A DNA stretch of 61,786 nt from an uncultured Alphaproteobacteria bacterium (GCA_905236245.1 CAJOPC010000019.1:1-61786), one strand, 5' to 3'; counted from the stretch's first letter, positions 4,133 through 41,344 are shown. Translations and numbers: made by a program. The notes: a model not told the origin generated them from the sequence alone.

Positions 4133-4151
4133 GGTTACTTCCTTCGTAGGA

Positions 4152-13214: not shown

Positions 13215-13222
13215 CCGTTTCC

Positions 13223-13282: not shown

Positions 13283-13317
13283 AAGGATAGCGTTTTCACA
13301 AGATAGAAGAATAACCG

Positions 13318-13346
13318 AGCACCCTTTTAGGAAGGGTGCTTTTTTT
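13318..13346 (+). terminator. intrinsic terminator inside a 5' leader (attenuator or riboswitch expression platform)
   Basis: AGCACCCTT-ttagg-AAGGGTGCT perfect 9-bp stem followed by TTTTTT. It ends 20 nt before the CDS start. Confidence 0.65.
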
Positions 13347-13365
13347 ATGAATGAAGGAGCATAAA

Positions 13366-14544: not shown

Positions 14545-14609
14545 TTGACTTAATTAGTATTTTATGTTAAACATATACTTATATTTAACAGCTAAAAAGG
14601 AGTTTTTAA

Positions 14610-22991: not shown

Positions 22992-22999
22992 GAGGAAAG

Positions 23000-26380: not shown

Positions 26381-26455
26381 ATATTACTCCTTTAATACAA
26401 CTATTAGTTTAATAGAACAGATTCGGGTTGTCAATAGAAATATTTATTTATGCAA

Positions 26456-27436
26456 TTATTTTTTCAAAATTGCGACTAATTCAATGTGATTTGAATAGGT
26501 AAATTGGTCAACAGGCGTTATTTTTTGAATGCTCCAGCCGTTGTCTGTCAGGAGTTTAATATCTCTGGCGCAGGTTTTTGGATTACAGGATATCATGATA
26601 ATCGTTTGAATGTTTGTTTGTGCCAGTTGTGTGACCTGGGCAAGCGCACCAGCCCTTGGAGGGTCCAATATCGCCAAATCTATTCCTTTTAGCTCATCGG
26701 GAGTTAAAGGAAAACGGAAAAGATCCCGTTGGACTCCGTGGTTATTTAAAATAAGGACAGATTCAGAACTGTCATAACCAGTAACAATCAGGCCTTTTTC
26801 TAATAAAGGCACAGTAAAGGTGCCTTTTCCACAAAATAAATCAACAGCATGATGATGTGTATGTGGATGCTCCAAAACAAGTTTGATTAAAGCTTGTTCG
26901 CCTTCTACACTAGGTTGTAAAAAATTATCTGCCGTGCCAGGAAGGGCCGCTTTTTCAAAAATAGGTGTATCATTGTAAATAACACGGACGATGTTTGGCG
27001 TCTGGTTTAAAGCAGTAAGTATTTCTAACTGTTCTAAATTCGGAATGCCGGTTTTGGTTTTGATGTGAATATCCAATCCCAAAGGAGTATCTAAAAGAAA
27101 TACATCCCCAGAAGTTTTGAGTTGTGTTAGCGTCTTTTTAATAATAGGCAAGGCGCTATTGATATTGTTTGTTAGTAATGGACATATTTCAATATCAATA
27201 ATTTTATGGCTTTTTGTTTCATTAAAACCAAAATGATTTTTAACAAAGGCAAAATTAGCTCTGCGGCGTGTTCCCGTTGGAATTAAAATAATTGGCTCCA
27301 AGCTAACATTTAGGCCGACATCTTGAAATGCATGAGTAATAAAAGATTCTTTTTTAGCAATATATTCTTGTTCGGTTAGGTTTTGCCAAACACACCCGCC
27401 ACATTTACCAAAATAAGGACATTTTTCTTTTAACAT
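26456..27436 (-). CDS. RlmD/TrmA-family SAM-dependent RNA (uracil-C5) methyltransferase
   Basis: N-terminal Cys cluster CPYFGKCGGCVWQ, SAM motif DLFCGKGTF and catalytic ISCNPKTCARD. Confidence 0.8.
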   Translation of the reverse strand: MLKEKCPYFGKCGGCVWQNLTEQEYIAKKESFITHAFQDVGLNVSLEPIILIPTGTRRRANFAFVKNHFGFNETKSHKIIDIEICPLLTNNINSALPIIKKTLTQLKTSGDVFLLDTPLGLDIHIKTKTGIPNLEQLEILTALNQTPNIVRVIYNDTPIFEKAALPGTADNFLQPSVEGEQALIKLVLEHPHTHHHAVDLFCGKGTFTVPLLEKGLIVTGYDSSESVLILNNHGVQRDLFRFPLTPDELKGIDLAILDPPRAGALAQVTQLAQTNIQTIIMISCNPKTCARDIKLLTDNGWSIQKITPVDQFTYSNHIELVAILKK

Positions 27437-27477: not shown

Positions 27478-28383
27478 TTATTGAAAGAATTGAAAGAAGT
27501 TATACCATTGTTCCGGGAATTGTAAAAGGTATGTTTCGATAAAGTCTAAGTATTGCTTTGAAATTTGAGGGATGTTTTGGCTAAGATTCATTTTTTTTAG
27601 ATAAAGTTTATAAGTGTTTTTTTGGCGCAGTAATAAGACAGTATATGTCGGTGCGTTTATTTTTTTTGCAAATTGAAGGGCCCCTTTTGGAATAGAGCAT
27701 TTTTTATCTAATAAGTTCCCGATAATTTGTGCTTTGGGATTTTGTGAAGAAAGTCTATCGGCTGCCATTAAAATGCAATCACCTTGTTCAAGTTTTTCGT
27801 ATAATTCCATAATCGCCAAAAAATCCAGTTGTTGCGCATCATATAACTTAAAGGCAGAAGAACGGTTTCTTTGCGTAATAAATTGGTGAAAAATACTGTT
27901 CTGACCAATTTCCATTAAGGCATTGAGGTTCTTACGGGGTAAAGACGAAAAAAAGTTTGGAAATGTAGCTAGTGTTTCTACATTACCTAAGTGAGAGCTT
28001 ATTAGAAAAAGTCCAGATTTTTTTTGTAAATCTTTTACAAAACTTTCCCAATTTTTATCTTTATGTATGGTGAATTTAATCCGAGATTTTTTGTCGCAAA
28101 GAACACTCATTTTTTCCGCTAAAGAAAATGCATAAGAATAAATGTGTTGATAGGTAGTGGGTATTTTGATTTTGAGATTGTGTTTGTGGATATATTCTTT
28201 TAACACGGCTTGATATTGTTTAGATGCTATTCGTCCGGCCTTTAAAAAAGGAAGCATCATAAAAATGATTGGATATAAAATGATTTGTAAGCCTTTCAAA
28301 TGGAAGAGTTTGTATATTCCCCATAAAAACAAGAGCCTGTATTTTCCGGCACATTGTTCTTTGATCGCATACCAACTTTCCAT
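27478..28383 (-). CDS. LpxL/HtrB-type (lipid A biosynthesis-like) acyltransferase, at the edge of the Ape-like cluster
   Basis: 301 aa with an N-terminal hydrophobic segment. The size and architecture fit Lip_A_acyltrans-type proteins that accompany APE clusters. The call rests on weak motifs only. Confidence 0.5.
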   Translation of the reverse strand: MESWYAIKEQCAGKYRLLFLWGIYKLFHLKGLQIILYPIIFMMLPFLKAGRIASKQYQAVLKEYIHKHNLKIKIPTTYQHIYSYAFSLAEKMSVLCDKKSRIKFTIHKDKNWESFVKDLQKKSGLFLISSHLGNVETLATFPNFFSSLPRKNLNALMEIGQNSIFHQFITQRNRSSAFKLYDAQQLDFLAIMELYEKLEQGDCILMAADRLSSQNPKAQIIGNLLDKKCSIPKGALQFAKKINAPTYTVLLLRQKNTYKLYLKKMNLSQNIPQISKQYLDFIETYLLQFPEQWYNFFQFFQ

Positions 28384-28425
28384 TTTTCCTTGCCTTTTCC
28401 CAAAAAAATCTATTATAATAAGCGT

Positions 28426-28956
28426 ATGAATATCTTTATAACAGATTTAGCAAAAATAAGCAAGAAAAGTATTTTTATGAAAAAAGCTGCTGTTTTATTA
28501 AATCAACGGGATAAAAGGCGCTTTGATGCTATGACATGTGTAAATCGGAAATTGCAATTTTTGGTTGGTCGTTTGATGATTGATAGATTTTTGGGCGAGG
28601 AGTTTTCTATACAAAAGTCGGGGAAATTAGTTTCTAAAAAAGGATATTTAAGCTTGGCCCATAGTAAGAATTTGGTGGTTTTGGCTTTGTCTGATGCCCC
28701 CGTTGGTGTTGATGTAGAATATACTTTAACAAAAAGAAATTATCGCAAAATTTGTCAGTTTTTACATTTGGGTGATTGTCATGATCCAAAAGATTTTTAT
28801 AAACTTTTTACGATGTATGAAGCTGATTATAAATTAGGTGCTACTACAAAAAAAATAAGTCATATGTTTTTTTTACAAAAAGATTATCTTATTTGCGTGG
28901 CAGGATTGAAAGAAGTTGCTTGCCAAGTTTACGAGTATTTTCCGGATCATTGTTAG
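28426..28956 (+). CDS. Sfp-type 4'-phosphopantetheinyl transferase
   Basis: LSLAHSKNLVVLAL...PVGVDVEY and FTMYEADYKL (W/F-x-x-KEA-like). I prefer the ATG at 28426 to the track start at 28354. Confidence 0.6.
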   Translation: MNIFITDLAKISKKSIFMKKAAVLLNQRDKRRFDAMTCVNRKLQFLVGRLMIDRFLGEEFSIQKSGKLVSKKGYLSLAHSKNLVVLALSDAPVGVDVEYTLTKRNYRKICQFLHLGDCHDPKDFYKLFTMYEADYKLGATTKKISHMFFLQKDYLICVAGLKEVACQVYEYFPDHC

Positions 28957-31057
28957 CCAAAATAAAGGCGTTTATAAAAGAAAACAACAATCCTAAAGCA
29001 ATTGTTTTACCCATGATGGAGATCATTGTAAAGCTGACAAAGGAAAGTAGTCCAAAGCCGATAAAACTGCTTAAAAACGAGAATAGAACAGGTCTTATTG
29101 TTTTGTGTGGAGAGAATAAAAAGATCGTGTAATCTATTCCCAAGCCAATAACGACGAACAAACTCAATAAATGAAAAAATGTTATGTCGTGTGTTAAAGA
29201 TAGTAGAGCGACTGTTTCCGCACAGCTTAGAACCGATGGAATAAGATATTGGATAGCTTTTTTTCGATAAATAAACACTAAAGTAAAAAGCAAGCAAATT
29301 AGACTAAATCCAAGTGTTTGATAGCTTTTTATTGCATATCGATCCAGTTCCTTTGCCAAATAATTTGTTGGGTCAAATAGTATTGCATCACTGTTATTTG
29401 GCAAAACGATTTCCTTTGATAAAGGCGTTATTGCCCAGGTTTCTTGATCGGCTTCAATAACAAATTGATTTAGATAAGATGGGAATATTTCTTTAAATTG
29501 ATCCTCTTTAATAATCTCTGTTTGTTGATAGGTCGGTTGAAATTTAAAGTGCAAGTCGGCCTTAAGGTTTTTTACCTCAGATTGATATAATTTTTTGATG
29601 AGCATATGGTTTTGTTTTTGCTTATTTATAGATGGTAAAACGGAAGCAAGACAGAAGAAATCTTCGGATTCTTTAATCTTTTCTTCTTTTTCCAATGTGT
29701 CTTGCAATGAATTTCCGCGTACTAATAACAAGTGAGAATAACTATGGCCGTTTAGTTCATTGGATAGTTTTTCTTCTTGAATCAAAGAAGGGTGCGCTTG
29801 ATATAATGATTGTAATGAATTGCTGAAATTTATATTTTTAAAACCGAAAAGTATGATGAATAAGCCAATGACTAAAAATAAAACTTTCGCCTTTTTGGGA
29901 AAGCAGAGGTGAAGTTGTAAATCTTTTTGTATATTAGTTTGCGGGTAACAAATGAACATAATCCATATAAAGGTTCCTATTAAACCTCCAATGATGAATA
30001 AGGCAATTTGATTTAAAAGTGGAAAAGAGGATAGGAGTAAAGGAACAAAACAACATACTGTCGTTAAAAAAGAGTAGGTGATATTTTGAATGTTTTGAGT
30101 TTTTGTTGCCCAAAAACGGTGGTAGGAATAATCGATACAAATGCCAATTAAGGATGCTCCGAAGGCAAAAGTTAAGATATGAATTTGCGAACAAAAAAGG
30201 AAAATTAGCAAACAACCGCAAGCAAAACTTAAAATCAAATTAAAAATAATATGCAGTGTTATTTTGATATTTGAGAAGAGGCGATAGGTCAGAATCAAAA
30301 GACTAAAAGCCCCTAATAACGAAATGATGAAGATTTCTGTGCGAGATTTTTGAAACATTTGAACCGTGTGTATTGGGGCTCCGGACAAATGGAAAATAAC
30401 TTCTTTTGATAAAGGTTGAATAACACTTTGGATGAATTTTATTTGCTCAATAAAGTTATTCATATCATTTTGTGTTAAATGTATCATCATTAAAATATAA
30501 AATTTTTCATTTTTTTGTTGGTAGAAAACTCCATCTTTTTCTCGCCATGAAAATGCTGGTTTAGGCATGTTTTGAACATAGTGAGTTAACAATAAAAAAG
30601 GATCTTCTCGTAACGGTAAAATGGTTGGCATCCATGATGTTTGTATATCTTGAACTGTTTGCTGCCGGACATCTGTCGTCTTGTTTTGTAAAAGTAATTT
30701 ATATGTATCTGTATCTAGAAAAGAGTTTTTATATTTTTTTAAATATTCACTGCCTTGTTCCAACATATTTTTGGGGGCAGAATATATGATATCATTAATG
30801 CCGAATTCCAAAAGCCTTGTATGTAATATATCAGCTTTTTCTTTTGCTAATTCAAATGAAGATGCTTCAATAATGATGCTTAGATTATTGCTATATTTGT
30901 TTACAATTTCTTTCGGTAAAATTGTGTTGTTTACCTTAACGGAGAAAAGATCATTTAATGAAGTTTGAAGGGAGGGAACCCCCTTTGATAGAAAAGTAAC
31001 GCCAAACAAAAGTAATAAAGTGCCGATAAATAGGATTGATTTAGCATTCAATTTCAT
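28889..31057 (-). CDS. MMPL/RND-superfamily exporter (ApeM-like)
   Basis: 722 aa with two blocks of about six TM helices separated by large loops. It sits downstream of the LolA-like gene, as in APE clusters. Confidence 0.7.
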   Translation of the reverse strand: MKLNAKSILFIGTLLLLFGVTFLSKGVPSLQTSLNDLFSVKVNNTILPKEIVNKYSNNLSIIIEASSFELAKEKADILHTRLLEFGINDIIYSAPKNMLEQGSEYLKKYKNSFLDTDTYKLLLQNKTTDVRQQTVQDIQTSWMPTILPLREDPFLLLTHYVQNMPKPAFSWREKDGVFYQQKNEKFYILMMIHLTQNDMNNFIEQIKFIQSVIQPLSKEVIFHLSGAPIHTVQMFQKSRTEIFIISLLGAFSLLILTYRLFSNIKITLHIIFNLILSFACGCLLIFLFCSQIHILTFAFGASLIGICIDYSYHRFWATKTQNIQNITYSFLTTVCCFVPLLLSSFPLLNQIALFIIGGLIGTFIWIMFICYPQTNIQKDLQLHLCFPKKAKVLFLVIGLFIILFGFKNINFSNSLQSLYQAHPSLIQEEKLSNELNGHSYSHLLLVRGNSLQDTLEKEEKIKESEDFFCLASVLPSINKQKQNHMLIKKLYQSEVKNLKADLHFKFQPTYQQTEIIKEDQFKEIFPSYLNQFVIEADQETWAITPLSKEIVLPNNSDAILFDPTNYLAKELDRYAIKSYQTLGFSLICLLFTLVFIYRKKAIQYLIPSVLSCAETVALLSLTHDITFFHLLSLFVVIGLGIDYTIFLFSPHKTIRPVLFSFLSSFIGFGLLSFVSFTMISIMGKTIALGLLFSFINAFILANNDPENTRKLGKQLLSILPRK

Positions 31058-31619
31058 TTGAAAAATCCTGAGATTTTGGTGTCAAAATAATTTCAATTTT
31101 TGTTTTGTTCTTATATTCTATATTGATGCGTTGAGGTATTTTGTCGCCATTTAAATGTATTTTTGATATAAATTGGGAAAAATCTTTTTGGGTTGGTATC
31201 ATATCCAAGGACCATTTTCCTTTGCTTTCAAAGTAGGATATTTCACCTAATCGGTATAGAGTTGTCAGGTCACCGATTAAAAGCTCATCAATTATGGATT
31301 TAATTTCCTCAAAATAAGGAAGTTCTTTCAGCATTTCTCTTTTCTCTGAAATACAATATGCTTCGGTGGATGCAACAAAAGTGTATTTAGACGGGGTTTC
31401 TTTTTTCAGAAAAATTCCTTTATCTTTTACGAATTGGAAAATGCCTGTTGATTTTAAAGGAGTATCTATTTCGGGAATATTTTTTGTTTGTTGATAAGCA
31501 AAAGTAGCATTATTTAGTTGTTTAAACCAATTAATAAAAATAGCGTCATCCGGAATTGCAGCAGCATGTCCCATAGGGGAAAATAATAACAGAAAAAATA
31601 GGGCAAAAAAACACTTCAT
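31041..31619 (-). CDS. LolA-like outer-membrane lipoprotein carrier family protein (ApeL-like)
   Basis: Signal peptide MKCFFALFFLLLFSPMGHAA. About 190 aa, positioned between the thioesterase and MMPL genes. Confidence 0.5.
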   Translation of the reverse strand: MKCFFALFFLLLFSPMGHAAAIPDDAIFINWFKQLNNATFAYQQTKNIPEIDTPLKSTGIFQFVKDKGIFLKKETPSKYTFVASTEAYCISEKREMLKELPYFEEIKSIIDELLIGDLTTLYRLGEISYFESKGKWSLDMIPTQKDFSQFISKIHLNGDKIPQRINIEYKNKTKIEIILTPKSQDFSNEIEC

Positions 31620-32017
31620 TTTAACCCCAGTTGTTTCAGGATTAAATCTGGAATTTCGTAAAAGCTTTCTTTTGTTTCAATGGAAACACACATTTGTTTT
31701 GTTTGTGCCTCGCATAACTTTTGGCCCGTTTGAGCGTTTTGAATCTTGTATTTAAAAAATAAAAAATTTGTGCAAGGTTCCAAATCTATTTTGATCAAAA
31801 TCTTTTGGCCAAAGATACACGGATGAATATATTTTATTTTTAATTCGACTATGGGAAAAGCATAACCAATTTTTTCCATATCTGTATATGTCATATCTTT
31901 TGTGCTCAGATAAGCACAGCGTGCTTCTTCCATGTATTTAATGTAGTTTCCATGCCAAACAACTTGCATCGGATCTACATCATAAAAAGGAATTGTTTTT
32001 TCATATTGAACGCTCAT
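31616..32017 (-). CDS. 4HBT/YbgC-type hotdog thioesterase (ApeK-like)
   Basis: IPFYDVDPMQVVWHGNYIKYMEEAR. Confidence 0.75.
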   Translation of the reverse strand: MSVQYEKTIPFYDVDPMQVVWHGNYIKYMEEARCAYLSTKDMTYTDMEKIGYAFPIVELKIKYIHPCIFGQKILIKIDLEPCTNFLFFKYKIQNAQTGQKLCEAQTKQMCVSIETKESFYEIPDLILKQLGLK

Positions 32018-32738
32018 GTGCCCACCATTTTGTTAATAGTTTTCTAAAAGAGTATATACATAAATAAGTATGAAGACAACTGATTTTTACATTATCTCGA
32101 AAAACATGGAAATGGGACACGCCAGTTTTGGGATAGATAATTTTTGTTTTGATGCCTAGTGCGGGTATTTTATTTAAAAAGCTTTTAACCAAAATTTCAA
32201 TATCAAAGCCCATGCGATCGAAGTGAATTTTGGGAAGGAGGGGAATCGTTTCTAAAATTGGATAGATGCGAAAACCACACATCGCGTCTAATTTTAATTT
32301 TCCTCTTGTTTCTATCCAAACCCAAAAGTTTGTTATTTTACGCCCATATAATCGAGATTTTGGAGCAGAGGAATCATATTCCGGTTGTGCGCTGATTAGT
32401 GCGCTAGGATGTTTTTGTGATAATTTTAAAAATTCATCAATATCATGGATGTCGTGTTGCCCGTCGGCATCAATTTGGAGTGCATGGGTATAATTGTTTT
32501 TTTCGGCCCAATATAAACCTGTTTTTATAGCGTTGCCTTTACCTTTATTTATCTCATTTCTTATATAAAAAAAATGATATTTTTTGCAAAGTGTTTGTGC
32601 TGTTTTGCTATGAATACCATCACTGCCATCATCAACAATTAAAACAGGGGGAAGTTTTAGTTTATTTAATTGATTTGCCATTTTTTCAAATGCCGGACCA
32701 TGATTGTAAAAGGGAATTAGCATCAGAGGTTTAAACAT
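32001..32738 (-). CDS. family-2 glycosyltransferase (ApeJ-like)
   Basis: LIVDDGSDG and LQIDADGQH (DxD). Confidence 0.8.
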   Translation of the reverse strand: MFKPLMLIPFYNHGPAFEKMANQLNKLKLPPVLIVDDGSDGIHSKTAQTLCKKYHFFYIRNEINKGKGNAIKTGLYWAEKNNYTHALQIDADGQHDIHDIDEFLKLSQKHPSALISAQPEYDSSAPKSRLYGRKITNFWVWIETRGKLKLDAMCGFRIYPILETIPLLPKIHFDRMGFDIEILVKSFLNKIPALGIKTKIIYPKTGVSHFHVFRDNVKISCLHTYLCIYSFRKLLTKWWAHERSI

Positions 32739-34428
32739 CTTTTCCTCCTATTGCAACAATTCCTGAGGCACAGGGTTTGTTTTCATGATTTAAATGAAAG
32801 TTATATTTATCTTGTTCAACCTTTTCCAATTGAAATTGAATGGTGGTATCCGGTAAAATTAAATTAGTGAATTTCAATTTTTGAATAGAATAATTTTGAG
32901 GTGTTTCATGAAAGAAATGTTCTAAGAAATAAAAGATAGTATGTAATTGTATGACCCCGGGTAGTATAGGAAAATCGGGGAAATGTCCTTTGAAGTAAAT
33001 GTTATCTTTTAAAAATGTTAAATCGGCTTGTAATTTGTTTTTTTCATAAATTAAATTTTCAATAATGGGCTCTGAGCAAGGGGAGTGTATAATACTTTCA
33101 ATTTCTTTTTTGAGTATTTTTCCTTGTGTATTTTTGGGTATTTGATATACAAAACGTATTTTTTTAGGTAAAACATTTTTACTATACCAGGCGGATAAAT
33201 ATTTCTTTAACGCCTGAACGAGATATAACTTCCCATTCTTTTTTAACAGGCTATTTCCTTGACCGTTAAGACAAATAAGGGCCCCTAAAACCATATTGTT
33301 GCCTTTTGGTATAGATAAACAATAGGATTCTTTAACTAGGCTATTTTGACTTAATTTGCTTTCCATTTCAGAAAGCGAAACTTTGTTTTCTGCAATTTTC
33401 ACAATGCGATCATTTCGTCCCAATAGTTTAAAAGTATTGTTAGAAGTCGGTTCAATTAAATCTTGCATATCATAGGGAGATTTGTAAGAAAAGCTTGAAT
33501 TTATCTTTATTGTTTTATCAACATTTTGTTCGATTTTTACCGTTGGAAATACACAAAATTCTTGAGAGGATATCTGTTGGCGATAAGCGACGCCGCCGGT
33601 TTCTGTGCTGCCGAAAATTTCAAAAGGAGAGACATTAAATAAATGATACATTTTCTCTGATGTTGCTTGAGATAAAAGACTGCCGGATGAATAAATGGCT
33701 AAACAATTTTTTGAAAAATGATACTGTGAATCATAAGCAACAATTTCGTTCATAAATGTAGGCGTTGTTATTAAAGATATGTAGTGATACAGTTTTTGTT
33801 TTGCTTGAATTTCTTCCGGATAAAAAATGGTATCTAAATCTTGTGTAAGTTGATTATATAGAGGGAACAAAAATCGCCAAAGCATGCCATACATATGATT
33901 TGGCATAACCGTAGCTAGAACAATAGGGGATTTTTTTATAACGGATTGTTGCATCTCACTATGGATTTGAATTTCTAGCATAAGACTTTCAAATGTTTTA
34001 GTAATAATTTTAGGAGCATTAGTAGAGCCCGAAGTAAAAAAGGAAATGTATCCATTTTGAATAGGTTTTAAATCGGCTGTTTCGTTTGTTATTATTGTGG
34101 TCGGATCGATCAAATCTTTGCTAGCGTTCGAAAATTTTTCATCAGTAATAAGCACGGGAGATAGCTTTAAAACATCTGGAATCATGCTGTCTGTTAAATA
34201 ACCCGGTAAAATTATATCTTTGTCGGCATATAACAATGCCATAAAACAAACATAAAATAAGTAGATATTATCCGGAATATATAAAATGGCGGAGGAACTT
34301 TCAATTTTTTGTAAAGCAAAGCAATAGCTTTTTATATCATTTTGAAATTGAGTAAATGAAATTCTTTTATCCCCATCAATAAATGGGACATAGTTGGGGA
34401 GAGATTGTAAAAGGATATCAGTAACCAT
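32731..34428 (-). CDS. AMP-dependent adenylating enzyme fused to a FabA/FabZ-like dehydratase (ApeH+ApeI-like fusion)
   Basis: FFTSGSTNAPKII and FGSTETGGVAY adenylation motifs. The C-terminal ~130 aa carry FKGHFPDFPILPGVIQL. Confidence 0.75.
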   Translation of the reverse strand: MVTDILLQSLPNYVPFIDGDKRISFTQFQNDIKSYCFALQKIESSSAILYIPDNIYLFYVCFMALLYADKDIILPGYLTDSMIPDVLKLSPVLITDEKFSNASKDLIDPTTIITNETADLKPIQNGYISFFTSGSTNAPKIITKTFESLMLEIQIHSEMQQSVIKKSPIVLATVMPNHMYGMLWRFLFPLYNQLTQDLDTIFYPEEIQAKQKLYHYISLITTPTFMNEIVAYDSQYHFSKNCLAIYSSGSLLSQATSEKMYHLFNVSPFEIFGSTETGGVAYRQQISSQEFCVFPTVKIEQNVDKTIKINSSFSYKSPYDMQDLIEPTSNNTFKLLGRNDRIVKIAENKVSLSEMESKLSQNSLVKESYCLSIPKGNNMVLGALICLNGQGNSLLKKNGKLYLVQALKKYLSAWYSKNVLPKKIRFVYQIPKNTQGKILKKEIESIIHSPCSEPIIENLIYEKNKLQADLTFLKDNIYFKGHFPDFPILPGVIQLHTIFYFLEHFFHETPQNYSIQKLKFTNLILPDTTIQFQLEKVEQDKYNFHLNHENKPCASGIVAIGGKDV

Positions 34429-34972
34429 GAATACTTCTCCTTCTCACAAGATATTCGCCCAAAAACATCATTCCAATTAGAATATAGGACAAACAGCCGT
34501 TGTATATCGTCCAATAAATTGTTGGTAAAAAGAGCGTCATGATTGAAATAAGTGTATTAAAGGCCATAAAAATTGTCCATGCCCATGTCGCTTTTCGAGT
34601 GTAGAGCCTTATTTCATCGGTCATGTGCTTTTCTATCTTTTCGGCAAAAGTGGTTATCAATGGCTTGTCTTTAAGAGAGAGGCCAAAGGTAAGGCAGATA
34701 AACAGGTTCATGCAAACGGGGTAGCATTTGATGAATAAAACATTTCTTGTAAAAATAAGACCGATTACAAGGGATAATCCTATTAAAAGAACCAATTTCT
34801 TGCGAGATTGCAAAAAGGATGCCATAAATGCAATAACCATCAAAAAGGCGAGAATATTCAAAGAAAAATTGTGCTGAAGTGCTACGAAAATTAGGAAAGG
34901 ATACAAAACAGCAATAAGAATTGTCAGTATTTGAATAAATTTATTCGGCTTTTTCATTGACAATTTTTTCAA
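34418..34972 (-). CDS. polytopic membrane protein (ApeG-position)
   Basis: 184 aa with four to five hydrophobic helices. No motif recognised. Confidence 0.5.
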   Translation of the reverse strand: MKKLSMKKPNKFIQILTILIAVLYPFLIFVALQHNFSLNILAFLMVIAFMASFLQSRKKLVLLIGLSLVIGLIFTRNVLFIKCYPVCMNLFICLTFGLSLKDKPLITTFAEKIEKHMTDEIRLYTRKATWAWTIFMAFNTLISIMTLFLPTIYWTIYNGCLSYILIGMMFLGEYLVRRRSIHGY

Positions 34973-35198
34973 TTGTTTCTACCAGGTCTTGTAATGTTCT
35001 GATTTGCTTGAAATCATCCGGATTTACTTTTTTCTGAATGATTTTTTGCAAGCGAACAATTAAATCTACCGCGTCAATACTATCTAAATCCAAGTCTTCA
35101 AAAAGCCGAACCGATGGAACTAATTTTTCGGCATCACATTCAAAATCCGCGACTAAGATTTCCTTGACTGTGTTTGAAATTTGTTCTTTTGTGTACAT
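34941..35198 (-). CDS. acyl carrier protein
   Basis: LDLDSIDAVDL phosphopantetheine-attachment Ser motif. 85 aa. Confidence 0.85.
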   Translation of the reverse strand: MYTKEQISNTVKEILVADFECDAEKLVPSVRLFEDLDLDSIDAVDLIVRLQKIIQKKVNPDDFKQIRTLQDLVETIEKIVNEKAE

Positions 35199-35206
35199 TG
35201 TGTCTC

Positions 35207-35476
35207 CTACGAATTTTTTTGTGTTTCAATAATATAGTCTGCGAGTGTATTGACAGAATAAAAGTATTGTTTGTTAGCGCTTTTATCCGCTTTAAAGGTT
35301 ACATTGTATTTCTTCTTTAATGCCATGCCCAATTCCAATGCGTCAATGGAATCTAATCCTAAGCCATCCCCAAATAAGGGGGCTTCTGTTTCAATGTCGG
35401 CAGAAGTTAAATCCTCCAAATCCAATGAGGAAACAATCAATTCTTTGATTTCTTGAACTAAATCCGCTTTTTCCAT
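35207..35476 (-). CDS. acyl carrier protein
   Basis: GLGLDSIDALEL. I prefer the ATG at 35476 (MEKADLVQEI...) to the track start at 35530. Confidence 0.85.
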   Translation of the reverse strand: MEKADLVQEIKELIVSSLDLEDLTSADIETEAPLFGDGLGLDSIDALELGMALKKKYNVTFKADKSANKQYFYSVNTLADYIIETQKNS

Positions 35477-35526
35477 TTGATACGCTCCAATTCTGCATAC
35501 GATTTTATACAAAAAAGATTTTAAAG

Positions 35527-36273
35527 TCAATTTATTCTTTCAAAAAGTTTTAAATAAATTTCTTGGCTTATTTGTTGAGCCTGTTGCCGTTGGGATAGAA
35601 TCTTTGTATCCTTAGCAAAAATCAGTTTGTTAAACCTAATTTGATATGTGGCGGTTTTGGGACCAATATCATACCATTTTTGATTTTTGCCTAATATACA
35701 CGGATGGCAAGTAATTTTAATAGGTAAAATGGGTGCGTGAGAGACAAGAGCTAAATGAGCAAAGCCTTTATAAAGCTTGCTTGGCCCCTTTGTGAGGTCT
35801 GTACGAGTGCCCTCTGGGAAAATGATGACATTTAATCCTTGATGCAATAATGTGGTCGCCTTAATAAGGAATTTACCCGGATCTTCATGGTTAACAAGAT
35901 ATATACGGTTTACAATGTGTTTAATGAAAAAATTTTGTGATAATGCTTTTTTAACAAGGCAAACGGTGTTGGGGATAATAGAAATCAATAGAACTATATC
36001 TAATAAGGTGGGATGATTAGCAACAATAATTGTCCCCTTTATAGTTTTGCAATTTTTTTGCGTAGGAATCTCAACGCGGATTAATCTTAACAAGGTGAGT
36101 ATTTTAACAAATAAAATCCAAGAATAATGAATTGTATTTGTAAGCAAAAACGGTTGTCTTTCTTTTTGTGTAAAAAAGATGATAAAAGGAAAGAGAATTG
36201 TTCCGATTAAAAATCCTCCTAGACCGAAGAAGGCAAAACATAAAATAGTTAAAAGCGAACGAAGGTATCTCAT
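35527..36273 (-). CDS. PlsC/LPLAT-family acyltransferase (ApeD-like)
   Basis: NHPTLLD (HX4D) and IFPEGTR motifs, with an N-terminal TM segment. Confidence 0.75.
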   Translation of the reverse strand: MRYLRSLLTILCFAFFGLGGFLIGTILFPFIIFFTQKERQPFLLTNTIHYSWILFVKILTLLRLIRVEIPTQKNCKTIKGTIIVANHPTLLDIVLLISIIPNTVCLVKKALSQNFFIKHIVNRIYLVNHEDPGKFLIKATTLLHQGLNVIIFPEGTRTDLTKGPSKLYKGFAHLALVSHAPILPIKITCHPCILGKNQKWYDIGPKTATYQIRFNKLIFAKDTKILSQRQQAQQISQEIYLKLFERIN

Positions 36274-36911
36274 GTCATTTGCCTGATAATTAAACCATTT
36301 ATATTAAGCTCATCTTTTGATTTAAGAAAATCAATTAACTCTTTGAAAGAGCATATTTTATTGTTATAATTTCCTGTTTCACAGGACGCCCGAATGGTGC
36401 CTGGCTCCGGTGTGGAAGAAACGATAAAAGCGACACCATGTCCTAAGAACGAATCCGAAAATTTTGGGGTATAAAAATCCGGAGTTTTTTCTTCAGCATA
36501 AATAAATAGAACCGGTTTTGGACCACAGAAAGTTTCAAGAAGTGCACTTGAAATAGTGGCTTCTTTTGCTGCAATAGAGGTGTAACTTTCTTTGGATTTT
36601 GTCAGGACAGACAAAAGACCCGGCATTGCATTATGAACGGAATGGGAAAAACCCGCAGGAGACGTTTCCTTGTCATTAAAAAATTGCTGGATTAAATCAA
36701 TCGTTTGTTGCCATTCGCCAAAGCGCGAAGCAAAAACAACCTGGCAATTTTGCGGAAGAGGTTCCAGTTGATGGGCCAAATATAACCCAATCTTTTCAAC
36801 TTGTGTCAAGCGCCGCCGGATTAATGGCGGGACGAAAGAAAGGTCCAGATCCGGGTTTCCCTCTGTTTGTTGCCAACAGGCATATTTGGGAATATAAAAA
36901 ATCTCTTTCAT
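36270..36911 (-). CDS. ketosynthase chain-length-factor-like protein (Ketoacyl-synt_2 type, ApeC-like)
   Basis: 213 aa with no active-site Cys context. SPAGFSHSVHNAMPGLLS matches the motif I associate with this family. Confidence 0.6.
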   Translation of the reverse strand: MKEIFYIPKYACWQQTEGNPDLDLSFVPPLIRRRLTQVEKIGLYLAHQLEPLPQNCQVVFASRFGEWQQTIDLIQQFFNDKETSPAGFSHSVHNAMPGLLSVLTKSKESYTSIAAKEATISSALLETFCGPKPVLFIYAEEKTPDFYTPKFSDSFLGHGVAFIVSSTPEPGTIRASCETGNYNNKICSFKELIDFLKSKDELNINGLIIRQMT

Positions 36912-36913
36912 GC

Positions 36914-36942
36914 TTGCAAAACTTTCTTCTTTTAAGTATAAT
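36914..36942 (+). promoter_or_regulatory. promoter of the KS-DH-KR-KS operon
   Basis: TTGCAA-17 nt-TATAAT. The -35 box abuts the start codon of the divergent gene. Confidence 0.5.
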
Positions 36943-36944
36943 CA

Positions 36945-36973
36945 ATTCTATACATAAAATAGTATTTTTGCAA
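36945..36973 (-). promoter_or_regulatory. promoter of the minus-strand Ape-like operon
   Basis: The minus strand reads TTGCAA-17 nt-TAGAAT. Confidence 0.4.
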
Positions 36974-36982
36974 GTGGGTTTT

Positions 36983-38113
36983 ATGAAAATAGTTTTGTCA
37001 TGTATGGGTTGTTTGTGCGCCTTGGGAAATTCACTTTCAGAGATTTGTGATCACATCCACAATCCTGGATTAAAAAAACATCCTTTAAATGGAATGCAAG
37101 TGCCTTTTGGGGCCGTTGATTTGACTCGAACAAAGCGGATGAGATGTTACGATCTTTTGGATCAAGTGGTGGATCAGATTCAAGAGAATATTGATTTGAT
37201 AAAGCAAAAGTATTCTTGCGAGCGTTTAGGTATTGTATTGGGAACATCTAACACAGGTATTCATGAAGCTCAATCCCATATTAATCAGTGGCTGGAAACA
37301 GGAAATTGTCCAAAGGAATTTTCTTTTGATGAAATTGAACTCGGAAGCCCTGCGCTGTATTTAAAGGAAAAAACAAAATTTTTAGGTCCAGCCTATGTTG
37401 TATCAACGGCGTGTTCTTCAAGTGCTAAGGTCTTTGCCTCAGCCCGTAATTTATTAAAAGCTGATATATGTGATGCCGTTTTGGTGGGAGGCGTGGATTC
37501 ATGTTGTGATTTTGCTTTAAATGGTTTTAACGCATTAGAGGCGCTCAGCCCCGAGCAATCTATACCTTTTTCAAAGAATCGACAAGGTATCAATTTGGGA
37601 GAAGGTGCCGCTCTTTTTATGATGGAAAAAGATACAAACGGCGTGGTGTTAGCGGGTGTTGGTGAAAGTTCGGATGCCTATCATTTAACTCATCCAGACC
37701 CGGAGGGAGCAGGGGCACTTATTGCCATGAAGCGTGCTTTAGAAGATGCTGGTTTGTCGCCTGAACAGATAGATTATATCAATTTGCATGGAACAGGAAC
37801 ACAGGCCAATGATGCAATGGAAAGCAAAGCTGTTTTTCAACTGTTTGGCCGGGACGTTCTTTGTGCTTCCACAAAACCTTTAACCGGCCATGCTTTAGGC
37901 GCTTCCGGAGCATTAGAGGCCGCTTTGTCATGGTTGATGTTGCAGAATAATTTTATTATTCCCCATTATTATGATGGCGAATTTGATCCGGAATTAGCGC
38001 CAATTTCATTAGCAAAAGGGAATGAGAATAAGACAATTAGGACGATTTTAAGCAATTCCTTTGCCTTCGGTGGTAGTAATGCCAGTATTATTTTAAAAAA
38101 GGAGGATGTATGA
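36983..38113 (+). CDS. beta-ketoacyl-ACP synthase (ApeO-like)
   Basis: VVSTACSSSAKV (active-site Cys), LHGTGTQANDAME and GHALGASGALEA. The track start at 36803 runs antisense through the divergent gene, so I prefer the ATG at 36983. Confidence 0.85.
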   Translation: MKIVLSCMGCLCALGNSLSEICDHIHNPGLKKHPLNGMQVPFGAVDLTRTKRMRCYDLLDQVVDQIQENIDLIKQKYSCERLGIVLGTSNTGIHEAQSHINQWLETGNCPKEFSFDEIELGSPALYLKEKTKFLGPAYVVSTACSSSAKVFASARNLLKADICDAVLVGGVDSCCDFALNGFNALEALSPEQSIPFSKNRQGINLGEGAALFMMEKDTNGVVLAGVGESSDAYHLTHPDPEGAGALIAMKRALEDAGLSPEQIDYINLHGTGTQANDAMESKAVFQLFGRDVLCASTKPLTGHALGASGALEAALSWLMLQNNFIIPHYYDGEFDPELAPISLAKGNENKTIRTILSNSFAFGGSNASIILKKEDV

Positions 38114-38574
38114 AAACTCCCGCTGAGCTTTTGCCACATAAGGCTCCGATGATTTTTATTTCGGATGTTCATTCTTTTGACTTTGCTAAAGGAGAGCTAA
38201 TTGCGCGTGCAAAGATTCAAGAAAGCGATATTTTATTTCAACCTAATCTTGGTGGTATCCAAGGCTATGCTGCTTTAGAGTATATGGCACAAAGTGTTGG
38301 TTGTTTTGTAGGGCTATATGATTTAGAAAAAAATCCAAATAACAAGCCAGCGGTGGGTTTTGTTTTAGGATCTCGTCAATTAAAAGTCTTTGATCCAATT
38401 TTGAAATTAGGAGAAGATTATTTGATCAAGGTGGATATGCTTTTTTGTGATGATACTATTGCTTCTTTTGAATGTCTCATGTATAATGAAAAAACAGAAG
38501 CAGAGGTCGCATCAGCAATTATCAATGTTTATCGTCCCGAAAGTTTAAATGATTTTGTAAAGGAATATACATGA
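38110..38574 (+). CDS. hotdog-fold 3-hydroxyacyl-ACP dehydratase (ApeP-like)
   Basis: LLPHKAPMIFISDV N-terminal motif. 154 aa with ATGA overlaps on both sides. Confidence 0.6.
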   Translation: MKTPAELLPHKAPMIFISDVHSFDFAKGELIARAKIQESDILFQPNLGGIQGYAALEYMAQSVGCFVGLYDLEKNPNNKPAVGFVLGSRQLKVFDPILKLGEDYLIKVDMLFCDDTIASFECLMYNEKTEAEVASAIINVYRPESLNDFVKEYT

Positions 38575-39299
38575 GTAGTCAACGCGTTTTAATTACTGGA
38601 GCAAGTCGAGGGATTGGAAAAGCTATTGCTTTGTATTTAGCCCCCAAAGGGTATGATTTAGTTGTACATTATAATACGAATAGGGATGCAGCAGAGCAGA
38701 CATTAAAGGAAATTCAAAGTTTGGGCGGAACAGGTTCCTTATTGTCTTTTAATATATCCGACAGAGATCAAACAAAAGCGGTTATAGAAGAAGATATGAC
38801 AAACAATGGCGTTTATTATGGTGTTGTTTGTAATGCAGGGATTGCCGAGGATAATCCTTTCCCGATTCTTGAGGATGATCAGTGGGATCGAGTGCTTCAT
38901 ACCAATTTGGATGGTTTTTATAACGTGTTAAAGCCAATAGTCATGCCTATGGTTGAAAATCGCATACATGGGCGTATTATTACTCTTTCATCAATATCTG
39001 GCATTATTGGGAATAGAGGACAGGTGAATTATTCGGCGGCTAAGGCTGGTATTATCGGCGCTACAAAGGCTTTGGCTGTGGAATTGGCTAAGCATAAGAT
39101 TACAGTGAACTGTATTGCACCTGGCATTATTGAAACAGATATGACAAAGGATTTGCCAGTTGAGGAAATTCGTAAAATTATTCCTGCACGGCGGATGGGA
39201 GATCCAAAAGAAGTTGCTAGTTTAGTTGATTACTTGTTATCCGAAGATGCTGGTTATATTACGCGTCAGGTAATTTCCGTTAATGGAGGAATGTTTTAA
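38571..39299 (+). CDS. 3-oxoacyl-ACP reductase (FabG family, ApeQ-like)
   Basis: ITGASRGIGKAIA and YSAAKAGIIG (YxxxK). Confidence 0.9.
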   Translation: MSSQRVLITGASRGIGKAIALYLAPKGYDLVVHYNTNRDAAEQTLKEIQSLGGTGSLLSFNISDRDQTKAVIEEDMTNNGVYYGVVCNAGIAEDNPFPILEDDQWDRVLHTNLDGFYNVLKPIVMPMVENRIHGRIITLSSISGIIGNRGQVNYSAAKAGIIGATKALAVELAKHKITVNCIAPGIIETDMTKDLPVEEIRKIIPARRMGDPKEVASLVDYLLSEDAGYITRQVISVNGGMF

Positions 39300-40531
39300 T
39301 GCGTCGAGTTGTTGTAACTGGTATGGGAGTTGTTAGTGCTTTGGGTAATAGTTTGGAGACATCCTGGAATAGGTTGCATACTTATGAAAATGTTGTTCAA
39401 AATATGGCAGAGCTTTCCAAATACAAAGGGCTAAATGCCAATTTAGGTGCCCCCATTTTAGATTTTAAAATCCCAGAACATTTTTCGCGTAAGGTATTGC
39501 GGACTATGGGCCCAGTTTCCGTTATGGCTGTATACGCCGCCGAAGAGGCATTAGTACAAGCAGGTTTAAAAGATGATCCTAGCTTAGGTTCTGGTCGGGT
39601 TGGCGTTGCTTATGGCTCTTCATGGGGGTCTGTCGAACCTGTCATAGACTTTTTCGGCATGTTGTCAACGAATGAAGTTACTTCAATTACATCGTCGACA
39701 TATGTGAAGATGATGCCACAAACAACAGCGGTGAATTTGTCTTTATATTTTAAAACAACGGGACGTCTAATTCCATCAGGAACAGCTTGTACATCAGGTA
39801 GTTTGTCTATTGGATACGCTTACGAAACAATTCGTCAAGGAGTGCAAGATGTCATGATCGTTGGTGGAGCGGAGGAGTTTAGTCCGACCCAGGTTGCTGT
39901 TTTCGATACTTTATTTGCAACTAGTACGAAAAACAATACGCCCGCTTTAACACCGTCTCCGTTTGATAAAAATAGAGATGGTTTAGTTATTGGAGAAGGT
40001 GCAGGAACTTTAATTTTAGAAGAATATGAACATGCAAAGGCTCGTGGAGCTAAAATTTATGCTGAGCTTGTGGGCTTTGGAACAAATACAGATGGGACTC
40101 ATATTACTCAGCCAAATGCCGAAACGATGGCTATTTGTATGCAGCTTGCACTTGATTCTGCTGGGCTTTCTGCTGATAAGGTTGGATACATAAATGCACA
40201 TGGCACGGGAACGCAACATGGAGATATTGCCGAAACAATGGCAACAGAGAAAGTTTTTGGAACAAATGTGCCTATCAGCTCTCTTAAAAGCTATGTAGGG
40301 CATACATTGGGAGCCTGTGGTGCTTTGGAGGCCATTTGGACGATTCAAATGATGAATAATGGTTGGTTTGCTCCAACTTTGAATTTAACACAGCCGGATG
40401 ACAATTGTGGCCATTTGGATTATATTATGAACGAAGCTAGAAATATGGATGTTGATTATGTTATGTCCAACAATTTTGCCTTTGGTGGCATCAATACTTC
40501 ATTGATTTTTAAAAAGATTGAAAATGAATAA
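39299..40531 (+). CDS. beta-ketoacyl-ACP synthase (FabB/F family, ApeR-like)
   Basis: GTACTSGSLSIG, AHGTGTQHGDIAE and GHTLGACGALEA. Confidence 0.9.
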   Translation: MRRVVVTGMGVVSALGNSLETSWNRLHTYENVVQNMAELSKYKGLNANLGAPILDFKIPEHFSRKVLRTMGPVSVMAVYAAEEALVQAGLKDDPSLGSGRVGVAYGSSWGSVEPVIDFFGMLSTNEVTSITSSTYVKMMPQTTAVNLSLYFKTTGRLIPSGTACTSGSLSIGYAYETIRQGVQDVMIVGGAEEFSPTQVAVFDTLFATSTKNNTPALTPSPFDKNRDGLVIGEGAGTLILEEYEHAKARGAKIYAELVGFGTNTDGTHITQPNAETMAICMQLALDSAGLSADKVGYINAHGTGTQHGDIAETMATEKVFGTNVPISSLKSYVGHTLGACGALEAIWTIQMMNNGWFAPTLNLTQPDDNCGHLDYIMNEARNMDVDYVMSNNFAFGGINTSLIFKKIENE

Positions 40532-40573: not shown

Positions 40574-41221
40574 ATGCCACTTCTCAAAAATCAACAAAAA
40601 ATCGCTGAACTCAGAAATAAGTGTCCAGAATTAGTTCGGGTTTCGAGTCGCTCAATGTCGGAATTAATACCTCATGTTTCTCAGCCGGATGAAGATCGTT
40701 TTGGATGCCCTGTTGGTCCAGTTGTTTTTGCTACATCAACTCAAGGTGATTTTTATGCTCTCAGTTGTAGTGATGGAGCGTTTAATTATTCACGATGCTG
40801 GTACGATGCTCATAAACGGCCTCATAGGGTTTTTATTTTTGAAAAAATGAAGCCTGTTTATTATAAACATTTTGTATCATCTGAAACTTTTATCCCTATT
40901 GTTCCGAAGGGTGATGTTTTTGAAGGAAAATTCATTTCGGGAGAGTGGGTATCTCCTGATAGAGTAAAGCCAAAACGTATTGAAAAAGGAACAAAAGAGG
41001 ATATTTTGAAAAAAACAGATGCAAGAGTTTTTTCTATTGTAGATTTAGATGCATTCAGATGCCAGTTTCCGATAAGATGGTTGGATAGACATATGGAAAT
41101 GATTCCACAGACGATCCATAATCTGGTTCAAAGAGGGATTTTAAAAGATGAAAATCCTCCTCCCTTGCGTGAAAAACTAAGAGGATTAATAAGCCTTTGT
41201 AAGCATTTACTGACCAGGTAA
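40574..41221 (+). CDS. hypothetical protein
   Basis: 215-aa ORF with SD GAAGGAGAA. No motif recognised. Confidence 0.5.
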   Translation: MPLLKNQQKIAELRNKCPELVRVSSRSMSELIPHVSQPDEDRFGCPVGPVVFATSTQGDFYALSCSDGAFNYSRCWYDAHKRPHRVFIFEKMKPVYYKHFVSSETFIPIVPKGDVFEGKFISGEWVSPDRVKPKRIEKGTKEDILKKTDARVFSIVDLDAFRCQFPIRWLDRHMEMIPQTIHNLVQRGILKDENPPPLREKLRGLISLCKHLLTR

Positions 41222-41261
41222 TAACTTTATAAACGTTTGGGGATGAAAAATTTTTATATTT

Positions 41262-41344
41262 TGGTGCGGGCGAAAGGACTTGAACCTTCACGCTTTTGGC
41301 ATTGGCTTCTAAGACCAACGTGTCTACCATTCCACCACGCCCGC
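41262..41344 (-). tRNA. tRNA-Leu (TAG)
   Basis: Acceptor stem GCGGGCG/CGCCCGC, discriminator A, CCA. Anticodon loop CTTAGAA. Long variable arm. Confidence 0.9.

Follow-up and report, generated by a model that had tools for sequence, protein, structure and literature searches.

A predicted aryl-polyene-lipid gene cluster with a divergent layout in an uncultured alphaproteobacterium

The 61,786-nucleotide stretch of DNA analyzed here (the window) belongs to an uncultured Alphaproteobacteria bacterium (GCA_905236245.1, CAJOPC010000019.1:1-61786). Between positions 27478 and 40531, it carries 16 tightly packed open reading frames (ORFs), which very probably form a complete and, as predicted from the sequence, functional cluster for the biosynthesis and export of an aryl-polyene lipid (APEL) of the proteobacterial type. 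Among bacterial biosynthetic gene clusters, those for aryl polyenes (APEs) are counted as one of the most widespread families, and APEs are associated with protection against oxidative stress and with an effect on biofilm formation in host-associated Gram-negative bacteria. An earlier note on this DNA had described an Ape-type type II polyketide synthase (PKS) and lipid-export locus composed of the apeC-to-apeM and apeO-to-apeR blocks, which proved correct gene for gene in BLASTP comparisons. The gene set is based on an ORF listing, the public gene calls on the identical contig (ENA ERZ1667814 scaffold_223), and start-codon checks. Domains were assigned with Pfam and NCBIfam using the curated cut-offs, and every domain named in the note was recovered.

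Assignment of the genes to the aryl-polyene pathway

All proteins of the window were compared by BLASTP with the annotated locus of Escherichia coli PCN033, ranging from yhhT through apeA-R to acpT. ApeC to ApeM and ApeO to ApeR are each represented in the window in a one-to-one map, and the best match of all 15 Ape-type genes is the corresponding E. coli Ape protein or a part of one (19-62% identity). The nine genes used as a core set for calling an ape cluster (apeO, apeR, apeE, apeF, apeC, apeI, apeP, apeQ, and apeM; bioRxiv 10.1101/2020.12.19.423268, Fig. 1) were all found, each with its E. coli counterpart as the best match and with support from family models. The cluster is about equally distant from the clusters of E. 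coli, Acinetobacter baumannii, and Ralstonia (BLASTP). The APE locus of E. coli was matched in 825 of 5426 complete genomes when the segment of the ketoreductase (KR) and the second ketosynthase (KS2) served as the blastn query.

The lineage of the ketosynthases was determined from the ranking of sequences in the PDB together with the NCBIfam cut-offs. KS2 scored 525 bits with 4ewg (ApeR-type) and 488 bits with ApeR of A. baumannii (7f27), compared to at most 301 bits with FabF and about 239 bits with FabB. The first ketosynthase (KS1) reached 264 bits with ApeO of Xenorhabdus doucetiae and 257 bits with that of A. baumannii, and at most 169 bits with FabF. The chain-length factor (CLF) matched only ApeC of A. 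baumannii (7f28_A) and of X. doucetiae (6qsp_B). By this ranking, neither KS1 nor KS2 falls among housekeeping FabB/FabF, a grouping that the earlier note, for the case that these were also the only FAS-II genes of the genome, had named as a reason to abandon the APE assignment. In line with this, KS2 remained under the cut-off of the FabF model TIGR03150 (392 vs. 494 bits), and a FabD passing the cut-off of TIGR00128 is encoded apart from the cluster (12192-13115). The KR remained under the cut-off of the flexirubin FlxB model (294 vs. 340 bits).

The fused ApeH-ApeI protein passed the Pfam cut-offs for AMP-binding and FabA, whereas the ApeI-like family was matched with 25.0 bits under a cut-off of 28.5. 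Its residues 24-448 align with E. coli ApeH (24% identity, E 4e-38) and residues 456-539 with E. coli ApeI (30% identity, E 1e-8). The best NCBIfam match of the ApeH domain is TIGR02372 (sub-threshold), the same model as for ApeH of E. coli, A. baumannii, and Ralstonia; no PDB sequence matched the fusion at E <= 1e-8. The set for lipid anchoring is complete with ApeD, the thioesterase ApeK, and ApeJ in the form of two proteins, a family 2 glycosyltransferase (GT2) and a stand-alone acyltransferase. Residues 5-230 of E. coli ApeJ are matched by the GT2 with 43% identity, and the GT2 of A. baumannii is matched as well (BLASTP). The 301-amino acid acyltransferase covers residues 247-550 of the same ApeJ (22% identity, E 2e-17) and matches the stand-alone acyltransferase of A. 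baumannii (E 2e-23); its orthologues in three related metagenome loci (L004-L006, described below) match PF03279. Its predicted role is the transfer of the APE acyl chain to the sugar moiety of the anchor. The exporter was most similar to ApeM of A. baumannii (E 7e-33), followed by E. coli ApeM (E 4e-19, 21% identity), and the LolA-like carrier to ApeL of Ralstonia (E 2e-13), with E. coli ApeL at E 2e-3 and 19% identity. The 4'-phosphopantetheinyl transferase (PPTase) is 26% identical to E. coli AcpT (E 8e-5, BLASTP), and its NCBIfam matches are the AusB PPTase (E 6e-7) and AcpT (E 8e-4), both far under the curated cut-offs. Its predicted function is the conversion of apo-ApeE and apo-ApeF into the holo forms.

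Alignments were used to assess the integrity of the catalytic motifs. The Cys-His-His triad is intact in KS1 and KS2. The CLF keeps the conserved SVHN motif of the ApeC type and has no active-site Cys motif; it is predicted to be the catalytically inactive partner of KS1. Both acyl carrier proteins (ACPs) retain the serine for phosphopantetheine attachment, which lies within LDSID in the ApeF-like ACP. In A. baumannii ApeE, an LED insertion, a glycine-rich motif, and a glycine in helix 2 are tied to the handling of the bulky aromatic starter, and an extended loop between helices 2 and 3 also belongs to the traits of this starter ACP (PMC12624758). The ApeE-like ACP of the window keeps the LED insertion (LEDL), the glycine-rich motif (FGDGLGLDS; G-x-G-L-G-L-DS), and the helix-2 glycine (ALELG); the NAE lid position of ApeE reads KAD. 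The adenylation motifs of the fusion protein (TSGSTxxPK, GSTETGG, GRxDRxVKI, and the lysine of a C-terminal QGK) and the dehydratase motif GHFP...PGV of its ApeI domain are intact. The ApeD-like acyltransferase carries HPTLLD (HX4D) and FPEGTR, and SHLGNVE (HX4E) of the 301-amino acid acyltransferase aligns with SHLGDVE of ApeJ. Because every motif checked was intact, a degenerate remnant was rejected as an explanation of the locus.

The mechanism proposed for the window follows the characterized systems of E. coli, Xenorhabdus, and Acinetobacter, from which the enzyme roles and the APEL structure are known (PMC8253772; bioRxiv 10.1101/2020.12.19.423268; PMC8358021; PMC12624758). There, ApeH adenylates 4-hydroxybenzoate (4-HBA) and loads ApeE without a CoA intermediate, ApeR and the ApeO:ApeC pair extend the chain, ApeQ reduces, ApeI/ApeP dehydrate, and ApeF is the proposed carrier of malonyl units or of a second conjugated acyl chain (PMC8253772; bioRxiv 10.1101/2020.12.19.423268; PMC8358021). 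ApeD places this second chain on lysophosphatidylglycerol, ApeJ adds N-acetylgalactosamine and then the APE acyl group, and ApeG, ApeL, ApeM, and ApeN export the product (same three sources). The window encodes every one of these components except ApeN. Accordingly arranged, the AcpT-like PPTase would generate holo-ApeE and holo-ApeF, and the ApeH domain of the fusion would adenylate an aromatic acid, most likely 4-HBA and possibly p-coumarate, and load it directly onto the ApeE-like ACP. The ApeR-like ketosynthase and the ApeO:ApeC-like pair would elongate the chain by malonyl units, which the FabD encoded at 12192-13115 could supply. In each cycle, keto reduction by ApeQ and removal of water by the pair of ApeI domain and ApeP would give rise to a conjugated polyene. 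ApeD, the GT2, and the separate LpxL-like acyltransferase, the latter two together corresponding to ApeJ, would join the chromophore to a glycerophospho-sugar anchor, to which a second conjugated acyl chain, carried on ApeF, would also be attached. ApeK would assist the release from the ACP, and ApeG, ApeM, and ApeL would carry the lipid to the outer membrane, where it would act as an antioxidant pigment. The earlier note had suggested a non-canonical polyene or lipid as the product; nothing points to such a product, and the parts for a canonical APE lipid are all present and intact.

Gene arrangement and the putative divergent control region

Eleven of the 16 ORFs lie on the minus strand and four on the plus strand; the remaining one, the PPTase gene, is a plus-strand gene inside the minus-strand block (Table 1). 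The minus-strand genes, listed from the left edge, encode the 301-amino acid acyltransferase, the MMPL exporter, the LolA-like carrier, the 4HBT thioesterase, the GT2, the fusion of AMP-ligase and dehydratase, a membrane protein, two ACPs, the lysophospholipid acyltransferase (LPLAT), and the CLF. The plus strand reads KS1, dehydratase, KR, and KS2. The longest starts given by the ORF finder were too long for KS1, the first ACP, the membrane protein, and the PPTase; ATG starts were adopted instead, which agree with alignments of homologues and with the public gene calls.

Two divergent operons with overlaps throughout had been described before. The 16 genes, their order, and the 71-nt spacer hold, but overlaps (1-17 nt) join the genes at only 10 of the 12 junctions of the main operons; the other two are gaps of 50 and 8 nt on either side of the first ACP gene (ApeE-like). 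The PPTase gene is wedged antisense between the genes of the exporter and the 301-amino acid acyltransferase. Its 3' end overlaps that of the exporter gene convergently by 68 nt (28889-28956), and it is divergent from the acyltransferase gene at a distance of 42 nt. The PPTase and acyltransferase genes are therefore separate units, and the locus comprises at least four transcription units. The same antisense position of the PPTase gene at the 3' end of the exporter gene in two related loci (L004 and L006) suggests a possible antisense interplay. The PPTase and the LpxL-type acyltransferase had been regarded as genes at the edge of the cluster; however, both are part of the system, the acyltransferase as the C-terminal half of ApeJ and the PPTase as an AcpT-like enzyme; acpT also borders the E. 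coli cluster. According to De Lay & Cronan 2006, as cited in PMC4103896, the carrier proteins encoded by this E. coli island are served by AcpT, so that the PPTase within the cluster is a known type of accessory.

Table 1. Features of the predicted aryl-polyene-lipid cluster (window coordinates; identities refer to E. coli proteins unless another source is named)
Feature	Position	Strand	Characteristics
LpxL/Lip_A_acyltrans-like acyltransferase, 301 aa	27478..28383	-	detached C-terminal half of ApeJ
Sfp/AcpT-type 4'-phosphopantetheinyl transferase, 176 aa	28426..28956	+	GVDVE motif present
ApeM-like MMPL/RND exporter, 722 aa	28889..31057	-	Pfam MMPL 21.3 bits vs cut-off 20.5
ApeL-like LolA-fold carrier, 192 aa	31041..31619	-	NCBIfam LolA2_flexi E 6e-12, 45 bits, under cut-off 125
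ApeK-like 4HBT thioesterase, 133 aa	31616..32017	-	Pfam 4HBT_2 E 9e-14; ApeK 37% identity, E 2e-34
GT2 glycosyltransferase, 245 aa	32001..32738	-	Pfam Glycos_transf_2; N-terminal half of ApeJ
ApeH-ApeI fusion, 565 aa	32731..34428	-	predicted aryl-acid adenylating, ACP-loading domain and hotdog dehydratase domain
ApeG-like membrane protein, 179 aa	34418..34957	-	A. baumannii ApeG E 1e-25; E. coli ApeG E 9e-19, 30% identity
ApeF-like ACP, 85 aa	34941..35198	-	PRK05350 100 bits vs cut-off 65; ApeF 48% identity
ApeE-like starter ACP, 89 aa	35207..35476	-	PRK09184 92 bits vs cut-off 70; ApeE 62% identity
ApeD-like LPLAT, 248 aa	35527..36273	-	Pfam Acyltransferase E 5e-15; ApeD 36% identity
ApeC-like chain-length factor, 213 aa	36270..36911	-	Pfam Ketoacyl-synt_2 E 1e-37; ApeC 23.5% identity
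Putative divergent control region, 71 nt	36912..36982	.	sequence
ApeO-like ketosynthase KS1, 376 aa	36983..38113	+	PRK09185 433 bits vs cut-off 407; ApeO 43% identity
ApeP-like dehydratase, 154 aa	38110..38574	+	Pfam ApeP-like 54 bits vs cut-off 27; ApeP 33% identity
ApeQ-like ketoreductase, FabG2 type, 242 aa	38571..39299	+	TIGR01831 FabG2 371 bits vs cut-off 339; ApeQ 59% identity
ApeR-like ketosynthase KS2, 410 aa	39299..40531	+	PRK09116 672 bits vs cut-off 470; ApeR 62% identity

The genes of the CLF and KS1 diverge across exactly 71 nt, as the earlier note had stated along with the inversion of the O-R block relative to E. coli. Within this region, the plus strand has a promoter-like site (TTGCAA-17-TATAAT, 36914-36942) that precedes the KS1 start codon by about 40 nt, and the minus strand has one (TTGCAA-17-TAGAAT, 36973-36945) that precedes the CLF start codon by about 33 nt. 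The -10 elements of the two sites are adjacent, and a perfect 9-nt inverted repeat, CTTGCAAAA/TTTTGCAAG, supplies both -35 hexamers. Elements similar to TTGCAA recur, with partial conservation, in the four related loci. Overall, promoter-like sites are no more frequent in the region than expected by chance (68 vs. 57 +/- 9). Paired divergent promoters that would read both main operons outward are a plausible arrangement.

Comparison with characterized clusters and the source of the starter

The ape clusters (apeA-R) of E. coli CFT073/PCN033 and X. doucetiae share with the window the gene order inside the C-M and O-R blocks, an adjoining PPTase of the AcpT type, the lack of a starter gene in the cluster, a KR of the FabG2 type, and the combination of an ApeO:ApeC pair of KS and CLF with a second ketosynthase ApeR. 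In contrast to these clusters, the window has the ApeO-R block in inverted orientation with divergent transcription, a single fused protein for ApeH and ApeI, and a split ApeJ whose acyltransferase half is encoded past the exporter gene; its PPTase gene is antisense. ApeA, ApeB, and ApeN are missing, and the identities range from 19% to 62%.

The cluster of A. baumannii (7f27, 7f28) resembles the window in its fused ApeH-I (552 vs. 565 amino acids in the window), in the separate GT2 (246 vs. 245) and acyltransferase (308 vs. 301), and in the ApeE hallmarks, which are conserved in the window. Unlike in the window, all of its genes lie on one strand, the acyltransferase gene directly follows the GT2 gene, and an aromatic amino-acid lyase, an FAD-dependent oxidoreductase, and a DUF3261 protein are encoded, none of which the window has. 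The megaplasmid cluster of Ralstonia solanacearum likewise has a fused ApeH-I and no DUF3261/ApeN, and its CLF, LolA-like protein, and LPLAT gave the strongest BLASTP matches to the window among the three reference clusters; it differs in a histidine/tyrosine ammonia-lyase gene, a fused ApeJ, and a gene set on a single strand. When plasmid and chromid records were searched with the fusion (tblastn), a single ORF spanned ApeH and ApeI in Acinetobacter, Ralstonia, and Caballeronia, whereas the two were adjacent genes in Pseudoalteromonas and enterobacterial records. Flexirubin clusters of Bacteroidota and xanthomonadin clusters have in common with the window the general logic of an aryl starter (predicted for the window), a polyene line similar to type II PKS, and LolA- and RND-like export; the window differs in having no DarA/DarB, tyrosine ammonia-lyase (TAL), XanB2, or halogenase. 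Specific to the layout of the window are the inverted ApeO-R block, the acyltransferase gene past the exporter gene, the two being separated by the antisense PPTase gene, and the absence of lyase, methyltransferase, halogenase-like, and DUF3261 genes.

Pfam scans of the cluster and of 30 ORFs flanking it in the window showed no methyltransferase, halogenase, ammonia-lyase, or UbiC-like gene, which bears out the absence of ApeB, halogenase, and lyase genes noted before. Among the window proteins, BLASTP and Pfam likewise revealed no counterpart of ApeA (lipoprotein), ApeB (methyltransferase), or ApeN (DUF3261). As neither ApeB nor a halogenase is encoded, an unmodified 4-hydroxyphenyl is expected as the head group; a Xenorhabdus apeB deletion mutant still produces desmethyl APELs (bioRxiv 10.1101/2020.12.19.423268). 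The missing starter gene had been taken for an anomaly, but the E. coli cluster has none either and needs none because its 4-HBA is derived from UbiC (PMC8253772).

Several points weigh against a complete and functional APEL cluster. ApeN, a LolB-like DUF3261 protein, is said to be conserved across APE clusters together with ApeG, ApeL, and ApeM (PMC8253772); homologues of the latter three appear to be present, whereas ApeN was not found in the cluster or the window. Since the Ralstonia cluster is also devoid of it, ApeN is not universal. The ApeL and ApeM assignments are based on low identities (19-24%) and are thus putative. The ApeH domain is only 24-28% identical to characterized ApeH proteins, so that its substrate specificity is putative. 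Finally, neither TAL nor histidine ammonia-lyase (HAL) appears to be encoded in the cluster, nor a UbiC-like protein in the 62-kb window; the lack of a lyase is of some weight, since A. baumannii and Ralstonia, which likewise have a fused ApeH-I, carry such a gene in their clusters. An ORF of 215 amino acids (40574-41221) was considered as a substitute for ApeN and rejected: it has no Pfam or NCBIfam match, no similarity to DUF3261 or Ape proteins, no N-terminal signal-like segment, and is not conserved in related loci. This orphan ORF sits between the last KS gene and tRNA-Leu(TAG) (40574-41344).

The same APE machinery might operate with a scavenged starter, in which case the organism would make neither 4-HBA nor p-coumarate and would load phenolic acids of dietary or host origin. 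This is unlikely, although a lyase or chorismate-utilizing gene is missing from the cluster, the four related loci, and the window, and the aromatic ammonia-lyase of the other fused-ApeH-I clusters has no equivalent here. Loading of both p-hydroxybenzoic and p-coumaric acid was achieved in vitro with A. baumannii ApeH (PMC12624758). The relatives stem from the ruminant gut, and rubrerythrin and SUF fit an anaerobe, in which ubiquinone and UbiC may be absent. On the other hand, E. coli manages with UbiC in spite of a cluster equally free of starter genes (PMC8253772), an aromatic-acid transporter is not evident in the cluster, and with 62 kb of the genome in view, UbiC, XanB2, or TAL may well be encoded elsewhere. 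If scavenging took place, synthesis of the pigment lipid would depend on phenolics freed from plant cell walls in the gut.

Even less probable, and indeed very unlikely, is an APE-like cluster for a non-aryl polyene lipid, in which the adenylating domain would accept an aliphatic or other acid and conjugated fatty-acyl lipids would be the only products. The low identity of the ApeH domain and the lack of genes for starter supply and aryl tailoring would be compatible with such a product, and Xenorhabdus APELs contain a separate non-aryl C26:5 chain thought to originate from the same enzymes (bioRxiv 10.1101/2020.12.19.423268). However, the ApeE-like ACP retains traits linked to aromatic substrates (PMC12624758), the family-match profile of the ApeH domain is that of 4-HBA-loading enzymes, and the core enzymes are all orthologous to APE enzymes.

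Housekeeping genes of type II fatty acid synthesis (FAS-II), or a flexirubin/dialkylresorcinol or xanthomonadin cluster, are so improbable that both were dismissed: KS2 does pass the broad FabF subfamily PRK07314 (390.6 bits vs. cut-off 387), and KR and the LolA-like protein give sub-threshold FlxB and LolA2_flexi matches, but KS2 fails the FabF equivalog and passes the ApeR-type model, KS1 passes the ApeO-type model, the APE ketosynthases score 90-220 bits over FabF and FabB in the PDB ranking, the AcpP models are under their cut-offs, a CLF, two dedicated ACPs, an adenylating enzyme, and an exporter are not FAS-II components, KR is above the FabG2 cut-off, and the defining genes DarA/DarB, TAL, XanB2, and halogenase are absent from the cluster (Pfam, NCBIfam).

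Related loci and genomic context

In a collection of 5.8 billion proteins, the ApeH-I fusion has more than 1000 relatives. The best 120 show the architecture of AMP-binding and ApeI-like domains at 41-59% identity, and the named ones are all labeled "MAG: Alphaproteobacteria bacterium". A scan of genome contigs yielded a metagenome-assembled genome (MAG) from sheep rumen as the only representative genome with a close relative of the fusion, and relatives come from ruminant gut metagenomes. Four alphaproteobacterial metagenome loci (L001, L004, L005, and L006) have the same divergent layout and gene order, with ApeH-I proteins 44-59% identical to that of the window. None of the four encodes a lyase, methyltransferase, or DUF3261 protein, and the PPTase gene occurs at its antisense position in L004 and L006 only. 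The genes flanking the cluster differ in every one of these loci. In all, the layout appears to be a conserved, clade-wide variant in metagenomic Alphaproteobacteria. The earlier note had counted identical clusters that are common and characterized in close relatives as an argument against its proposal; they are common, forming a large metagenomic clade, but not characterized. The features presented as anomalies are either normal for the APE family or shared by this clade.

Some deviations were observed among the related loci. In L004, the GT2 gene is directly followed by the LolA-like gene and the ApeK thioesterase is missing (11702-13002), and the acyltransferase corresponding to the C-terminal half of ApeJ has 432 amino acids with an extra ASCH-like region. 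The cluster of L006 is flanked by phage-like genes encoding a GpJ-type tail fibre and a phage tail domain (1-1006) and Lambda_Bor (18144-18467).

The locus adds a well-conserved layout variant from poorly known, uncultured gut-type Alphaproteobacteria to the APE family. It shows a minimal conserved set without ApeA, ApeB, ApeN, and a starter gene, an ApeJ that can be split with its acyltransferase half located past the exporter gene, and a dedicated AcpT-type PPTase that accompanies the cluster in part of the clade. Such a variant is useful for annotating APE loci and for delimiting the core of the pathway. A clade of small-genome, anaerobic gut or rumen Alphaproteobacteria whose stripped APE cluster runs on diet-scavenged phenolics, provided that the genomes are devoid of UbiC, XanB2, and TAL, or whose ApeH domain has switched to a non-aryl starter, is conceivable but rather doubtful; scavenging throughout the clade would imply a diet-dependent envelope antioxidant built on phenolic acids of the plant diet.

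An AT-rich, uncultured alphaproteobacterium was confirmed as the host, but the idea that such a host is unusual for APE clusters was not, as they have been reported in Alphaproteobacteria before, for example in Acetobacteraceae (PMC8776678). Thousands of genomes from the rumen and gut also have APE cluster calls (PMC8241843, PMC9769736). The top matches of SufB point to the same uncultured lineage ("MAG: Alphaproteobacteria bacterium" / "MAG: Pseudomonadota bacterium"). A rubrerythrin gene (14610-15152) and a complete SUF operon for Fe-S assembly (21552-25901) are located in the window; both are in keeping with an oxygen-sensitive way of life, for which an antioxidant pigment in the envelope could be of use. 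The host is probably an anaerobic, uncultured alphaproteobacterium of the gut type.

The two nearest SufB relatives (L009 and L010, 87-88% identity) keep the order of the genes for aldose epimerase, GGDEF protein, suf operon, and helix-turn-helix (HTH) protein, and neither has an APE cluster at that position. In L009, an RlmD-like gene is kept, followed by the gene for AspRS (12580-14169), and in L010, RpoD, PtsP, and glucokinase directly follow the HTH gene (14345-14824). In the window, whose region 25898-27436 was compared with these two, about 25 kb including the APE cluster lie between the HTH gene and PtsP (51149). As the nearest relatives keep the suf flank without the cluster, the cluster is an accessory element in a segment that varies between genomes, in agreement with the patchy occurrence that APE clusters are known for. 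The total GC content is 0.31-0.36 in the minus-strand operon vs. about 0.38 elsewhere, whereas the third-position GC of the cluster equals that of the rest of the window (0.30 each). No att-like repeats were found between the left edge of the cluster and the tRNA-Leu gene at its right edge, and no integrase near the cluster. A recent acquisition by horizontal transfer, or a genomic island, is therefore not supported by the equal third-position GC, the lack of att-like repeats, and the lack of a nearby integrase, although the segment differs between relatives.

Further observations concern other parts of the window. In many bacteria, fabD is followed by fabG-acpP-fabF, which is not the arrangement at the FabD gene of the window; this gene overlaps by 7 nt an ORF of 397 amino acids without a Pfam or NCBIfam match (11005-13115). 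An ORF of 894 amino acids (8041-10725) has no significant Pfam family and adjoins tRNA-Asp. Two adjacent ORFs of 280 and 235 amino acids (3290-4859) contain leucine-rich repeats of the LRR_6 type, a eukaryote-like type often linked to host interaction; the neighboring ORFs of 421 and 385 amino acids have no Pfam match. At 47350-48699, in a stretch of low GC content (46-50 kb, about 0.32), a 449-amino acid fusion of an IspD-like cytidylyltransferase and a short-chain dehydrogenase is encoded, which presumably resembles bifunctional CDP-ribitol synthases and adjoins methyltransferase and GNAT genes.

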